A stretch of 32,000 bases of DNA from Candidatus Electrothrix yaqonensis. GTDB taxonomy: Bacteria > Desulfobacterota > Desulfobulbia > Desulfobulbales > Desulfobulbaceae. The notes under the pieces were generated by a model that had not been told where the DNA came from, made no database searches, and was given only the letters and a program-made list of their open reading frames with translations. Below, piece after piece: positions 13,515 through 16,974 of this stretch; within the stretch, counting starts at the first letter, position 1, and each line of letters begins with the position of its first letter. The stretch lies in contig CP178758.1 in assembly GCA_047651235.1 (NCBI GenBank), positions 3,090,001 to 3,122,000 of the forward strand. Direction: 5' to 3'. The position numbers and the translations under genes are program-made.

Positions 13515-13985
13515 TTACTCCATTTTTTTGGTATATTTTTTCTCAGTTCCATCCATGTACCACTCGGTATTTGCATTCATGTAATCAGTCGGGCAACGTC
13601 CGGTGGCCTCTATTACAGTAATGCTGATATTGGAGAGGCCACCTCCCACAGTTGCGGTATTATTTCCGGAAAGTTTTGAGAATTTAAGCCCTGCTGGCCC
13701 AAGAGCTCCTTTACCAGGAATAGTGCCACCATTCTCAACCCAGAACCAAGGCAAATTGTTTTTAAGCAGACTGGTATTGGATGGAATAGCAAAATAATCA
13801 GCAATAGTTGCAGCCATTGCAGCTGCATCTGCCTCAGCTGAACTACAAAAAGCCTTATCTCGGTACGCAATAAAGTTCGGAATAGCAACTGCTGCCAGAA
13901 TACCGATGATAGCAATAACAATCATCAGCTCAATCAGGGTGAAACCTTTTTCATGAGTTCTGGATATTGATTGGTTTCCTTTCAT
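13515..13985 (-). CDS. Type IV pilin-like protein, paralog 1 (156 aa)
   Basis: Class III signal and N-terminal helix: [51 protein letters not shown] lies 7 nt before the ATG. Confidence 0.92.
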
Positions 13986-14038
13986 AGTTATTTCCTCCGG
14001 CGATTTTTATTGTATGATGAATATTTATATCCTCTTTA

Positions 14039-14055
14039 ATGCATAATTCGTACCA
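14039..14055 (-). promoter_or_regulatory. Sigma-54 (-24/-12) promoter of pilin 1
   Basis: The minus strand reads TGGTACGAATTATGCAT, with GG and GC at the canonical 10-nt offset (consensus TGGCAC-N5-TTGCW). The -12 GC lies about 55 nt upstream of the ATG at 13985. Confidence 0.7.
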
Positions 14056-14103
14056 GGATGGATAGTTTTCGCCATTCCAGATGAAGAAACTTATGAAAGA
14101 TAA

Positions 14104-16176
14104 CTATGGGGTCAACTGTGCTTTCTTCAATATTTCGGCAAGGCTGTTTTTCAGAAAACTAACAGCCTCCTCGTTCAGTACATCATGCTGAACATTCTGC
14201 AGAGCCGTTTTTATGCCGGGCAGAGGATACTCGGCAACAATATCACGCAGAATTTTTTCCGTGGAATCATGTTGATTGTTTGCATAATAGGCTGCAGCAA
14301 GAGTCAGCTGATACCTTAGCGTCTTTGGTGCAAGCTGTTCAGCCTGTTGTACAAAGAAGAGACTGTTCGGATATGCTTTATTTTTCATAAGCAGAAGTCC
14401 GGTCAAATGCATAACCTGATGATTATTCAGTGAGCGTCCAGTAATTTCTTGCAATCGTTTCAGAGCGATATCAAGGTTTCCGGTCTGGTAGGCAGAAACA
14501 GCGGTCAGGTATTGATATTCAACCGGTGCGGGATATTCTTCGGTGAGTTTCAGGCCGTCCGGCAGAGCTTTTTCCGGCTGACCAAGCTGGAGAAAGGCCA
14601 GTAATCTGTTTTTCAGGCAGGCTTCGTCTTTTTCGTCTATTTCCAGGCATTGGTTGAAATACTGCAGTGACTGCTGATAGTTGCCGAGCATGTAAACGAC
14701 CGAAGCCATTCCGTTCAATGCTGCCTTTTTCGTCATTTTCGGATCCGCAGCTTTGTCCGCATTCTGAAAAGCCAGCTGAAAATAATGATACGCCTGCCTG
14801 TACTGCCCGAACTGACGATGCCATTTACCGAGATTATGCGCTGCCCTGGAGCTGTTCGGTGCCCTGCGGATTGCATCGGTCCAGAGGGTGCCTTCTGTTG
14901 CCCAGTCCAGATTGCGTGTATAGGTGGCGTGGCCGGAAATAACCAGGAAAAGGATGGTACAGAATACAACAGCAGTACGTCCGAAAAGAGAAAGTTTTCC
15001 GGGGACGTACAGGACGTGGGCGATTCCGGCTCCAAAGGGAAGAAACAGAAAGAGCGAAGGAAGATAATTGCGGTGCTCAAAAATTAATTCCAGCTGCAGG
15101 ATAGTTGACTCAACCGCATGATTGAGGAAGAAGAACAGGACAGGAAAACAGATCAGGGGATATTTTTTCAGGAAAACAAGTGAGCTGACAATCAGCGATA
15201 AGATAAGTAGAATTGAAGGCAGAGTCGTCCAAGGCGAAAACAGGGAACCTGACAGAACAATATCATGCTCAATAGAGAGCCGTTCTGAAATCGGCAGAAA
15301 AATCTGCGAAAGATACATCAAGACAATACGCGGCTGGGTGAGGATACGTTCACTGAAGGTAAAAGAGCGGTTACTGTAGCTGTCCAGAAAACTTAACGGG
15401 TTGGAAATCTTAAACGGAGTAATACCCAGTCCGTACCGGACAAAGAGAAACCCGCAGATTAAGACTGCGCCTCCGGCAAGAGCAAGGAGAGTTATATTTT
15501 TTTTTGAAAAATGATGCCGAAAAAAAGAGAATTCCAGCAGAAACAGAGAAGCTGGCAGCAGAATAGCATTTTCTTTGCTGCCCAGTGCGGCAAAAAAGGA
15601 CAGCAGACAGAGAATAAACCAGATATATTTTTTTTCTGTTCTCCCCCGAAGGTAGGTGTAAATGGCAATTATTGTAAATAAAGTGGCCATGGAGGCCATG
15701 CGTTGAACAATATAGGTGACCGCCTGGGTCTGGATCGGCGCGAGTGCCCAGAAAAGGGCTGCGAGCAAAGCAGCACCGGTAAAAAATTGCGGGGGATATT
15801 GTTTTTTATAGTGAATGTGCAGGAGTAGATGAAGCGTAAGAAAGAGAAACCAAGCTGTCAGAATATGGATGGCAAGATTGACAACATGGTAGCCGAATAC
15901 GTTGTCCTGGCCGAAATACCAGTTCAGAGCCAGAGTCAGGCACGGGAGAGGGCGGTAGAGCCTGTTGCGCTCAGGGACAGTTGGATGTGCCCGGATGGCG
16001 TGATTTATTTGTTGGAGATTGAGAGAGGAGAGGTGGAGCTTCGTATTTGTGAGGATATTGGGTTCGTCATCCAAATGCCAAGACGTATTAAACGAGTTGA
16101 CATACGAAATGAGGATAATTCCTGTGGTAAGCAGGAAAAGTACAAACGAAAAATGTTTGGCAGGTAATTTGTTCAT
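14104..16176 (-). CDS. Polytopic GT-C-type (TMTC/PMT-like) glycosyltransferase with a C-terminal TPR domain (690 aa)
   Basis: About 11 hydrophobic spans in residues 1-430. Acidic first-loop motif SWHLDDEPNI, then YRPLPCLTLALNWYF...GYHVVNLAIHILTAWF. Residues ~440-690 are TPR-like repeats (AHNLGKWHRQFGQYRQAYHYFQLAF..., LGNYQQSLQYFNQCLEID...). The family assignment is from pattern recognition only. Confidence 0.65.
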   Translation of the reverse strand: MNKLPAKHFSFVLFLLTTGIILISYVNSFNTSWHLDDEPNILTNTKLHLSSLNLQQINHAIRAHPTVPERNRLYRPLPCLTLALNWYFGQDNVFGYHVVNLAIHILTAWFLFLTLHLLLHIHYKKQYPPQFFTGAALLAALFWALAPIQTQAVTYIVQRMASMATLFTIIAIYTYLRGRTEKKYIWFILCLLSFFAALGSKENAILLPASLFLLEFSFFRHHFSKKNITLLALAGGAVLICGFLFVRYGLGITPFKISNPLSFLDSYSNRSFTFSERILTQPRIVLMYLSQIFLPISERLSIEHDIVLSGSLFSPWTTLPSILLILSLIVSSLVFLKKYPLICFPVLFFFLNHAVESTILQLELIFEHRNYLPSLFLFLPFGAGIAHVLYVPGKLSLFGRTAVVFCTILFLVISGHATYTRNLDWATEGTLWTDAIRRAPNSSRAAHNLGKWHRQFGQYRQAYHYFQLAFQNADKAADPKMTKKAALNGMASVVYMLGNYQQSLQYFNQCLEIDEKDEACLKNRLLAFLQLGQPEKALPDGLKLTEEYPAPVEYQYLTAVSAYQTGNLDIALKRLQEITGRSLNNHQVMHLTGLLLMKNKAYPNSLFFVQQAEQLAPKTLRYQLTLAAAYYANNQHDSTEKILRDIVAEYPLPGIKTALQNVQHDVLNEEAVSFLKNSLAEILKKAQLTP

Positions 16177-16181
16177 GTCTC

Positions 16182-16211
16182 AAAAAAAGGGAAGCGATTT
16201 GCACACCTCCC
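16182..16211 (-). terminator. Intrinsic terminator/attenuator between pilin 2 and the GT-C gene
   Basis: On the minus-strand RNA the stem is GGGAGG...CUUCCC (16206-16211 paired with 16189-16194, one G-U pair) with an 11-nt loop, followed by U7 (16182-16188). The GT-C ATG (16176) begins 5 nt after the U-tract. Confidence 0.55.
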
Positions 16212-16238
16212 TTTTTTGACAGCATCAGCCTGTAAAGA

Positions 16239-16703
16239 TTATTCCATTTTCTTATTAAATGTCTTGACAGTTCCGTTTAGGCGCCATTCATCGTTTGCAT
16301 CCATGTAATCCGTCGGGCAACGACCACTAGCTTCTGTTACAGTAATGCTGATATTTGACAGCCCGCCGCCGACTGTTGCTGTGTTGGTTCCCGAAAGGGG
16401 GCTAAATTTAAGTCCTGTAGCTAAATTTGTAAGAGTTTTCCCAGTATTATCTATTGTTCCTATTGTTCCTCCAGGACCTTTCATCAAACTGGTATGACTC
16501 GGAACAGCAAAGTAGTCAGCAAGTCCAGCTGCAATAGCATTTGCATCCGCTTCAGCCGAGCTGCAGAACGCCTTATCACGATAGGCAATAAAGTTTGGGA
16601 TAGCAACCGCTGCCAGAATACCGATGATGGCGATAACGATCATCAGCTCGATCAGGGTAAAACCTTTCTCGTTGGCTTGGATTTTGAGTTGATTCAGTTT
16701 CAT
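16239..16703 (-). CDS. Type IV pilin-like protein, paralog 2 (154 aa)
   Basis: [45 protein letters not shown]. The internal ATG 16703, preceded by GGAGGA, is chosen over the ORF-track start at 16793, which would overlap the sigma-54 promoter. Confidence 0.92.
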   Translation of the reverse strand: MKLNQLKIQANEKGFTLIELMIVIAIIGILAAVAIPNFIAYRDKAFCSSAEADANAIAAGLADYFAVPSHTSLMKGPGGTIGTIDNTGKTLTNLATGLKFSPLSGTNTATVGGGLSNISITVTEASGRCPTDYMDANDEWRLNGTVKTFNKKME

Positions 16704-16776
16704 GATGTCCTCCGTTTTAAGGAATGTTTTTTGACTGCCGGCAGCTGCCGACGTTTTTTGTTCTTTCCCCCTGTAA

Positions 16777-16792
16777 TACATGATCCGTGCCA
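16777..16792 (-). promoter_or_regulatory. Sigma-54-like (-24/-12) promoter of pilin 2
   Basis: The minus strand reads TGGCACGGATCATGTA. The -24 element is perfect, and the -12 element is TGT instead of TGC at the correct spacing. A palindromic hairpin CGGCAGCTGCCG lies in the 5' UTR. Confidence 0.55.
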
Positions 16793-16974
16793 AGTGAAGG
16801 GTTTCTGCATTTTTATTTTGCTATCAAGCAATCACAGGCAGTTAGTCTGTGTTGACTGTCAGGCGGCATATATTCTTTGTCAGCAGAGCGGCAGGCGGAG
16901 ACAATCTCTGACAGGCCGTGACAAAAAGTGTCAGCCAGCGCAGAAACAGGACATCCTGCGTTGCGAAAATCGGC

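Follow-up and report, generated by a model that had tools for sequence, protein, structure and literature searches.

The stretch analysed here (the window) comprises 32,000 nucleotides of Candidatus Electrothrix yaqonensis DNA (contig CP178758.1, positions 3,090,001 to 3,122,000), and the subject of this analysis is a minus-strand cassette within it, in which the gene for a 690-amino acid (690-aa) predicted membrane glycosyltransferase (GT) lies between two type IV pilin genes. In the direction of transcription, the minus strand carries a tRNA-Pro(CGG) gene (18748-18824) directly 5' of rfbB, then rfbB, encoding dTDP-glucose 4,6-dehydratase (17560-18621; Pfam GDP_Man_Dehyd/Epimerase, E 1e-94), rfbC, encoding dTDP-4-dehydrorhamnose 3,5-epimerase (16975-17526; Pfam dTDP_sugar_isom, E 1.5e-72), pilin A, a type IVa major prepilin (pilA) of 154 aa (16239-16703; Pfam N_methyl, E 2.3e-10), the 690-aa GT gene, an open reading frame (ORF) at 14104-16176, and pilin B, a second prepilin of 156 aa (13515-13985; Pfam N_methyl, E 2e-10). 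An earlier reading of the letters without database searches (the sequence-only reading) had proposed a pilin-glycosylation module here, and the three minus-strand ORFs, as well as rfbB and rfbC upstream on the same strand, were indeed present where it had placed them. The span it gave, 13515-16793, contains real ORFs, but its upper end belongs to a TTG-extended ORF: the ATG at 16703, with GGAGG 7 nt upstream, is most likely the real start of pilin A because a sigma54-type promoter motif falls inside the TTG extension (16777-16792). On record, under the cable bacterium Candidatus Electrothrix sp. YB6, the identical 690-aa protein is named just "tetratricopeptide repeat protein."

Both prepilins contain the Pfam N_methyl domain and, likewise above cutoff, TIGR02532, and both have the class III signal G/FTLIELM with Glu5; the best NCBIfam match of pilin A is the Myxococcus-type PilA model, which remained sub-threshold. 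As the sequence-only reading had supposed, the two genes are paralogous, their products being 70% identical over the full length (E 1e-65). The mature parts are 72% identical to each other and at most 65% identical to any pilin of other cable bacteria. Because pilins A and B are thus mutually closest relatives, and because the DNA repeat that they form is limited to the coding sequences, pilin B is predicted to be either a YB6-lineage-specific duplicate of pilin A or a product of gene conversion. Ser and Thr together make up 25% and 18% of the globular parts of the two pilins, so that the richness in these residues remarked on earlier is real but moderate rather than striking. A P-x-H-T-(S/T) segment, conserved in the pilin family where the alpha-beta loop begins (mature T57/S58), is a plausible glycan acceptor by analogy with Neisseria and Pa5196 pilins, which are glycosylated in this region. 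The family also has a conserved Cys pair, in mature numbering C33 with C115 or C117 (Cys33 and Cys115 in pilin A). C33 belongs to a KAFCS segment in the C-terminal portion of the long N-terminal helix and C115/C117 to GRCP, an arrangement that differs from the usual two C-terminal cysteines.

Inspection of the DNA 5' of pilin A revealed a sigma54-type -24/-12 promoter motif (TGGCACGGATCATGTA, 16777-16792, minus strand). Of 94 pilin ORFs of the family, 49 are preceded by a motif of this class at a distance of no more than 260 bp, against an expectation of 0.018 per 290 bp, and an ATGTA variant of the -12 element is common to the Electrothrix loci L004, L005, and L008; no sigma54 motif was found upstream of pilin B. 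Further, a sigma54 response regulator adjoins the cassette in 41 related loci, and pilR is not in the 32-kb window. Pilin A is predicted to be pilA, the gene of the major type IV pilin, with regulation of the sigma54/PilR type. The 62 bp between the stop of pilin A and the start of the GT gene contain a hairpin followed by a U-run (16177-16220, minus strand), which a simple terminator scan did not pick up and RNA folding did reveal (-22.2 kcal/mol, z -2.7; 3 of 200 shuffled sequences folded equally well). This hairpin is likely an attenuating intrinsic terminator. Pilin-accessory cassettes typically have a Rho-independent terminator 3' of the pilin gene (PMC11841053), and the combination of sigma54 motif and post-pilin hairpin at this locus resembles the arrangement of Pseudomonas pilin-accessory cassettes.

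The motifs that the sequence-only reading quoted from the 690-aa protein were all found, SWHLDDEPNI at residue 32, YRPL at 74, and GYHVVNLAIHILTAWF at 95. Its count of about 11 hydrophobic spans agrees with the 11 hydrophobic helices of an AlphaFold2 model of the full-length protein built with 43 homologues (predicted local distance difference test score (pLDDT) 88.6, predicted template modelling score (pTM) 0.82). The protein divides into a membrane domain with 11 predicted transmembrane (TM) helices (residues 1-428; 14893-16176, minus strand) and a C-terminal tetratricopeptide repeat (TPR) domain of ~7-8 repeats (residues 429-690; 14104-14892, minus strand, with the stop codon). The TPR-like C-terminus foreseen earlier was confirmed by Pfam, with TPR_12, TPR_2, TPR_14, TPR_1, and TPR_19 all above cutoff at residues ~430-660. 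A Foldseek search of the PDB with the full-length model returned TPR proteins alone, including OGT and consensus-TPR structures. Because this search was dominated by the TPR domain, residues 1-428 (the N-domain) were remodelled separately (pLDDT 81.8, pTM 0.87). With this model, 15 of the 16 best matches were enzymes of the GT-C fold class, each at a probability of 1.00, namely STT3 (of the yeast and human oligosaccharyltransferases), Pmt4, PglB, ArnT, DPY19, and AglB, with Pmt1/2 and Emb proteins ranking next; the E-values were just ~1e-4 to 1e-2 and the query-normalised TM-scores 0.37-0.54. Overall, the model indicates that the membrane domain has a GT-C fold to which no solved structure is close. 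The sequence-only reading had named a missing GT-C fold, a missing acidic-loop site, or best matches outside the glycosyltransferases as grounds for abandoning it; the fold was recovered by AlphaFold2 and Foldseek, the DD motif of the acidic loop is invariant, and 15 of the 16 best structural matches of the N-domain are glycosyltransferases.

Next to the fold, direct sequence comparison places the membrane domain with the TMTC proteins. When the N-domains of the homologues were aligned by hhalign with TMTC N-domains (in the alignment published as a supplement to Eisenhaber et al. 2021, PMC7801869), the match extended over 394 columns, that is, the whole domain (99.5%, E 3.3e-23), and BLASTP of the 690-aa protein returned human TMTC3 at 1e-14 and TMTC2 at 8e-9. 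Together with the fold, these comparisons bear out the TMTC/PMT-type GT-C plus TPR layout proposed from the letters, and the 690-aa protein is predicted to be a GT-C enzyme that belongs to the TMTC/PMT clan. The putative catalytic pair in periplasmic loop 1, D36-D37 (codons 16066-16071, minus strand), aligns with the DD of TMTC motif M1 and is invariant both in the 43 full-length homologues and in 16 N-terminal domains; R75 P76, K201, H304, and H368 R369 N370 Y371 are invariant as well. The 43 homologues in which these putative catalytic and donor-binding residues do not vary span 36-70% identity. The comparison with the motifs of Eisenhaber et al. 2021 covered M1-M5 and M7. The YRP of M2 is kept as Y74-R75-P76, and its S-H-K-S is lost; the Arg of M3 is kept as R159, with its Asp replaced by A161; the KE of M4 is kept as K201-E202, with T/Q..T lost; M5 (DW) reads E303-H304 here, so that the acidic residue is kept; and E367, R369, Y371, P373, and S374 of M7 are all kept. 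The residues predicted to bind phosphate or metal (K201-E202, E303-H304, and E367/R369/Y371) are conserved.

In the AlphaFold2 model, the short loops on the side of the N-terminus are all K/R-rich and lack acidic residues, and the opposite side carries two 68-residue loops, the DD motif, which lies within the 68-residue loop that follows TM1, and the TPR domain. Because the number of helices is odd (11), the N-terminus lies inside, and the loops follow the positive-inside rule, the DD motif is predicted to face the periplasm, and so is the TPR domain. Among the homologues, mean pairwise identity is 51% in the catalytic domain and 29% in the TPR domain, and this far better conservation of the catalytic domain favours an active enzyme over a TPR scaffold with a membrane anchor.

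To place the cassette among its relatives, loci with homologues were collected from one genome per species, which yielded 532 loci; the best 78 were examined, and 72 of these were evaluable for pilin adjacency. The examined loci belong to Desulfobulbales, Electrothrix and Electronema among them, and to Desulfobacterales with their allies, and the identities range from 43 to 75%. In 49 of the 72 loci, the first GT copy is preceded on the same strand by a prepilin ORF whose end is less than 660 bp away, and a prepilin lies within 1.5 kb in 59, at an overall density of prepilin-like ORFs of 0.095 per kb. Thus, in a survey of pilin-TPR-GT-C pairs that had been set beforehand as a check capable of refuting the sequence-only reading, the adjacency proved to be conserved. 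It persists on the same strand, next to pilA, down to ~45% identity and across two orders; the pilin family to which pilin A belongs adjoins the GT in 66 loci. The pilin-GT-pilin arrangement itself recurs in three loci (L002, L006, and L009), and three other Electrothrix loci share the upstream synteny of PP-loop gene, HU, rfbB, rfbC, pilA, and GT. Two contigs, L009 (labelled as a Cyanobacteriota metagenome-assembled genome (MAG)) and L072 (a Bacteroidales MAG), have pilin-GT-GT cassettes of the kind typical of Desulfobacterota (59% and 46% identity, respectively) and are probably mis-binned.

Clustering of all ORFs around these loci gave a canonical order of pgpA, lepB, pyrC, pilR, pilin, between one and five GT-C/TPR genes in tandem, VKOR-DsbA, PMT_2 GT-C, and GT2, and the identities of the module neighbours were confirmed by Pfam. 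A VKOR-DsbA fusion occurs in 45 loci, a 551-aa PMT_2/PMT GT-C enzyme (above the Pfam cutoff) in 43, and a GT2 enzyme with C-terminal TM helices in 30. The best full-length NCBIfam matches of the neighbouring GT2 are AglJ, PpgS, PgfS, ArnC, and a dolichyl phosphate-hexose transferase, all below their equivalog cutoffs, and these best matches suggest a synthase of the polyprenyl-phosphate monosaccharide type. The conserved neighbours of the cassette did not include an identifiable flippase. Three things that periplasmic O-glycosylation of a pilin would need are encoded in the neighbourhood, a GT2 that putatively makes the donor, transferases of the GT-C class, and an enzyme for disulfide formation, and the co-location of VKOR-DsbA fits the conserved Cys pair of the pilin family. 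The YB6 window retains just pilin A, the GT, and pilin B, along with rfbB and rfbC.

The sequence-only reading had taken the low GC content of the GT gene as a hint of separate ancestry. At the level of whole genes, the GC content is 0.463 for the GT and 0.445 and 0.425 for the pilins, against 0.50-0.59 in neighbouring genes; at third codon positions, the cassette genes reach 0.36-0.50 and the neighbours 0.52-0.67, with the pilins lowest. The GT gene is therefore AT-richer than its surroundings, as claimed, but less so than the spot counts had implied, and it is the pilins that are most AT-rich. A similar dip is seen in cable-bacterial homologues (in Ca. Electronema aureum, for instance, 0.38 versus 0.49), and over all loci the median difference is just -0.013, Desulfobacterales cassettes being mostly without a dip. 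The proposed separate ancestry is not supported: the cassette is syntenic in Desulfobulbales and Desulfobacterales, the AT bias is shared by cable-bacterial homologues, and no att-like repeats were found at the borders of the segment. We also considered an integrated island, given the tRNA-Pro gene upstream of rfbB, and rejected it as unsupported, since no att-like direct repeats, including a downstream duplicate of the tRNA-Pro end, were found, the sole long repeats are the pilin coding sequences, and the GC content of rfbB and rfbC is normal. Because synteny is conserved, no flanking repeats were found, and rfbB/rfbC composition is normal, nothing argues that the GT was recently acquired from a foreign source. 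Pilin cassettes are reported to be frequently exchanged or diversified by turnover in Pseudomonas, and frequent exchange or diversifying turnover of this kind is one possibility for the dip seen here.

The products of rfbB and rfbC make a dTDP-4-keto-6-deoxyhexose intermediate, and the remaining two genes of the dTDP-rhamnose pathway are absent from the window. GT-C enzymes draw on lipid-linked donors and do not use nucleotide (dTDP-linked) sugars directly. In the loci L004, L005, and L008, rfbB is syntenic and 83-84% identical, and it is solely in these Electrothrix loci that rfbC adjoins pilA. The link of rfbB and rfbC to the module, as first drawn, is therefore not supported, the adjacency being confined to Electrothrix and the donors of GT-C enzymes being lipid-linked rather than dTDP-linked. 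According to the TfpW paper, there are species in which genes for sugar synthesis lie clustered with pilA-tfpW, and a functional link of rfbB/rfbC to the cassette is possible but weak.

The closest known parallel is TfpW, the pilin D-arabinofuranosyltransferase of Pseudomonas aeruginosa group IV strains. This protein of 646 aa is described as having 11 TM helices, a DDx motif that is essential and lies in periplasmic loop 1, and a TPR domain at the C-terminus, in the periplasm. Its gene lies directly downstream of pilA, it is required for arabinosylation of the pilin, and ArnT is its best template. By this published description, TfpW (Pa5196/PA7) and the 690-aa protein are alike in architecture, in an ArnT-like GT-C fold, and in their place 3' of pilA. 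The description thus speaks against two statements of the sequence-only reading, that the module is of an uncharacterised type and that the protein resembles none of TfpO/PilO, PglL, and TfpW. There are differences, however. TfpW has a proline-rich Y-x6-PF-x7-P motif near its TPR domain, whereas the corresponding segment here is Y371-LPSLFLFL-P380-F381 (Y-x8-PF), in which P380 is invariant and F381 is not; no D-arabinofuranose genes (DprE1/E2-type) lie near the 690-aa gene; the partners in Desulfobacterota are VKOR-DsbA, a PMT_2 GT-C, and a GT2, with the GT often in two to five tandem copies; and the host of TfpW belongs to Gammaproteobacteria rather than Desulfobacterota.

The other relatives are more distant in architecture or in chemistry. 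TMTC1-4, the metazoan cadherin O-mannosyltransferases of the endoplasmic reticulum, share homology over the 11-TM domain, the DD, YRP, and KE motifs, an acidic EL4 residue, E..R..Y.PS, and a C-terminal TPR domain on the non-cytoplasmic side. They differ in that identity is ~21-25%, S-H-K-S of M2 and Asp of M3 are replaced, and DUF1736 is undetected here; further, their donor is dolichyl phosphate mannose and their acceptor a cadherin domain, whereas the donor here would be an undecaprenyl phosphate-linked sugar and the proposed acceptor a pilin. Full-length TMTC homologues have been reported in poorly characterised prokaryotes, including a Deltaproteobacterium (Eisenhaber et al., PMC7801869). 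TfpO/PilO and PglL likewise are membrane-bound and act in the periplasm to glycosylate type IV pilins, and tfpO, too, lies directly 3' of pilA with a terminator between. However, these enzymes belong to the Wzy_C fold family and transfer preassembled undecaprenyl diphosphate-linked oligosaccharides, and the 690-aa protein has no Pfam match to Wzy_C at E <= 1. PMT/Pmt (GT39) and ArnT (GT83) are members of the GT-C clan, structural neighbours, and the source of a weak PMT_2 match; unlike PMT/Pmt, the 690-aa protein has only a sub-threshold PMT_2 score and no match to the MIR domain, with a TPR domain instead. Finally, related loci pair GT-C genes with GT2 as three-component systems do (Gtr, ArnC/ArnT, and Pgf of Streptococcus mutans), but the 32-kb window holds neither a GT2 nor a flippase.

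Building on the gene content and synteny observed, on the fold, the homology to TMTC, the conserved motifs, and the topology logic of the protein, and on the promoter and hairpin motifs, we consider that the locus is probably a pilin-accessory cassette in which a TMTC-clan GT-C enzyme O-glycosylates the pilin in the periplasm. It is the conservation of the pilin-GT pairing in related sulfate reducers that makes glycosylation of the pilin probable; that any sugar is added at all, as well as the acceptor (pilin), the donor, and the site, we infer. The hairpin after pilin A would pass just a fraction of transcripts into the 690-aa gene. At the cytoplasmic face, a GT2, encoded beside the cassette in many relatives but not in the 32-kb YB6 window, would load a monosaccharide onto undecaprenyl phosphate, and the lipid-linked sugar would then be flipped. 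The TPR domain may recruit the pilin, and the GT-C domain would move the sugar to Ser/Thr of the globular domain while the pilin is still anchored in the membrane, before polymerisation. Pilin B, the presumed recent duplicate, could serve as a second substrate. Beyond this locus, we tentatively suggest, as a possibility that we hold with less conviction than its converse, that the whole module conserved in Desulfobacterota (PilR/sigma54, pilA, between one and five GT-C/TPR genes of the TMTC-like kind, VKOR-DsbA, PMT_2 GT-C, and GT2) is a dedicated pilin maturation pathway in which TMTC-type enzymes O-glycosylate the folded pilin domain.

Several results speak against pilin O-glycosylation by a TMTC-type enzyme, and they have to be set beside those above. 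The Pfam search proposed in the sequence-only reading was clear for the TPR domain and less so for the rest: no family was above cutoff on the membrane domain, PMT_2 reached 16.4 bits against a cutoff of 26.1 (residues 131-240) and was sub-threshold in 3 of the 16 homologous N-domains, and DUF1736, which covers the TM7-TM8 loop, gave no match at E <= 1 in the query or in any of these 16 domains. NCBIfam likewise had no above-cutoff model on the membrane half, and a profile hidden Markov model of the N-domain found nothing relevant among PDB sequences. The residues of TMTC that contact mannose (S-H-K-S of M2 and Asp of M3) are not conserved, and for this reason the sugar cannot be named. The donor-side genes, GT2 and flippase, are missing from the window, and a search of the literature on pilins with TMTC, on pilin glycosylation in cable bacteria, and on pilin glycosylation in Deltaproteobacteria yielded nothing relevant; the YB6 genome paper makes no mention of the locus, pilA, TPR, or glycosylation. 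The remaining adverse results concern the acceptor: 13 of the 72 loci have a GT homologue without a nearby pilin, one locus (L067) contains five tandem GT-C/TPR paralogues and no pilin, GT-C and GT2 genes alternate in three others (L015, L016, and L066), and a mirror-tree comparison of pilin and TPR domain gave a weak signal, with a partial r of 0.16 against 0.17 for the catalytic domain.

The pilin-less loci, the arrays, and the alternation of GT-C and GT2 genes indicate that the family probably has other acceptors too, and they lend themselves to the view that the protein is an active TMTC-like GT whose main acceptor is not the pilin but some other periplasmic or surface protein, a glycan, or a lipid, its proximity to pilA stemming from shared PilR/sigma54 regulation or from an envelope-biogenesis neighbourhood. 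The lack of TPR-specific co-evolution with the pilin is in keeping with this view, as is the size of the family, for which 66,833 cluster representatives were found at E <= 1e-3 and 12,040 at E <= 1e-30, with more than 150 representatives of ~700 aa scoring below 1e-143, so that many acceptors must exist. We nevertheless regard a non-pilin main acceptor as rather unlikely at this locus, since the same-strand adjacency to pilA is kept to ~45% identity in two orders, accessory genes specific for the pilin (tfpO, tfpW) are characteristically found directly after pilA with a terminator between, and the co-located VKOR-DsbA fits the Cys pair of the pilin. As an observation on the family as such, the array of L067 and the alternating loci suggest that these enzymes have diversified beyond pilins.

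The two remaining explanations dispense with either the chemistry or the protein acceptor. The 690-aa protein might be a non-catalytic chaperone or assembly factor that handles the pilin through its TPR domain (TfpY/TfpZ-type or TPR-pilotin-like), the GT-C domain being a mere anchor. This would agree with the published account of the cluster in cable bacteria, in which the TPR proteins are read as protein-interaction proteins rather than glycosyltransferases (Geelhoed 2023, PMC10580974), and some pilin accessory proteins do aid assembly without modifying the pilin (PMC11841053). It is hard to reconcile with putative catalytic and donor-binding residues that do not vary in the 43 homologues, or with the fact that conservation is higher in the membrane domain than in the TPR domain, where a mere anchor should show the reverse, and we consider it very unlikely. 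The target of the enzyme might instead be a lipid or polysaccharide, modified in a reaction like that of ArnT or related to O-antigen synthesis and with a 6-deoxyhexose supplied via RfbB/RfbC, with the pilins as bystanders, as the position of rfbB and rfbC directly upstream on the same strand and the presence of ArnT among the structural neighbours could suggest. Pilin adjacency is general, however, and that of rfbB/rfbC is not; the closest sequence relatives of known function are the TMTC protein O-mannosyltransferases rather than ArnT; and a TPR domain is typical of protein-directed transferases (TMTC, OGT, and TfpW). A lipid or polysaccharide target is consequently the least probable of the explanations considered here. 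Glycosylation of the pilin by the 690-aa enzyme thus remains the interpretation we prefer.

Part of this picture was already known, namely the cluster in cable bacteria (Geelhoed 2023, PMC10580974), including extra pilA copies of which one lies downstream of TPR genes, and the architecture and gene position of TfpW. What the comparisons add is the homology to TMTC, with the putative catalytic residues intact, an order-wide conserved module with VKOR-DsbA, PMT_2, and GT2 partners, and the hypothesis that the abundant PilA of cable bacteria is a glycoprotein; PilA is cited as the most highly expressed protein in Ca. Electronema aureum's proteome (PMC10580974). A gene annotated merely as that of a TPR or protein-interaction protein gains a specific, predicted enzymatic role, and a bacterial family of TMTC-like GT-C/TPR proteins that numbers tens of thousands of clusters becomes linked to type IV pilins through synteny in two orders. 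If the pilin is indeed the acceptor, this would be the first substrate for the bacterial TMTC-like family and a prokaryotic counterpart of domain-specific O-mannosylation of cadherins. A glycosylated PilA would also bear on the protein and carbohydrate layers of the envelope around the conductive fibres of cable bacteria, and it would affect proteomics searches, surface modelling, and the reading of roles in motility, phage evasion, and the envelope.

Elsewhere in the window, a riboswitch of the c-di-GMP-I class (Rfam RF01051; score 54.6 bits, gathering score 35) was found at 23612-23690 on the minus strand, directly 5' of an ORF for a 398-aa protein (22390-23586, minus strand) that has no Pfam match at E <= 1e-4. 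This ORF is predicted to be a gene under cyclic di-GMP control. Low-GC patches lie at 23.5-24.0 and 24.5-25.0 kb, and an ORF in such a lower-GC patch (24142-25149, plus strand) contains a DDE_Tnp_1-associated domain and is probably a transposase remnant. A bactofilin gene stands beside a gene for an M23 peptidase with a long coiled-coil N-terminus (9966-11541, minus strand), and ftsA and ftsZ are found upstream of this pair. These genes for cell shape and division may be of interest in a host that is filamentous and multicellular.

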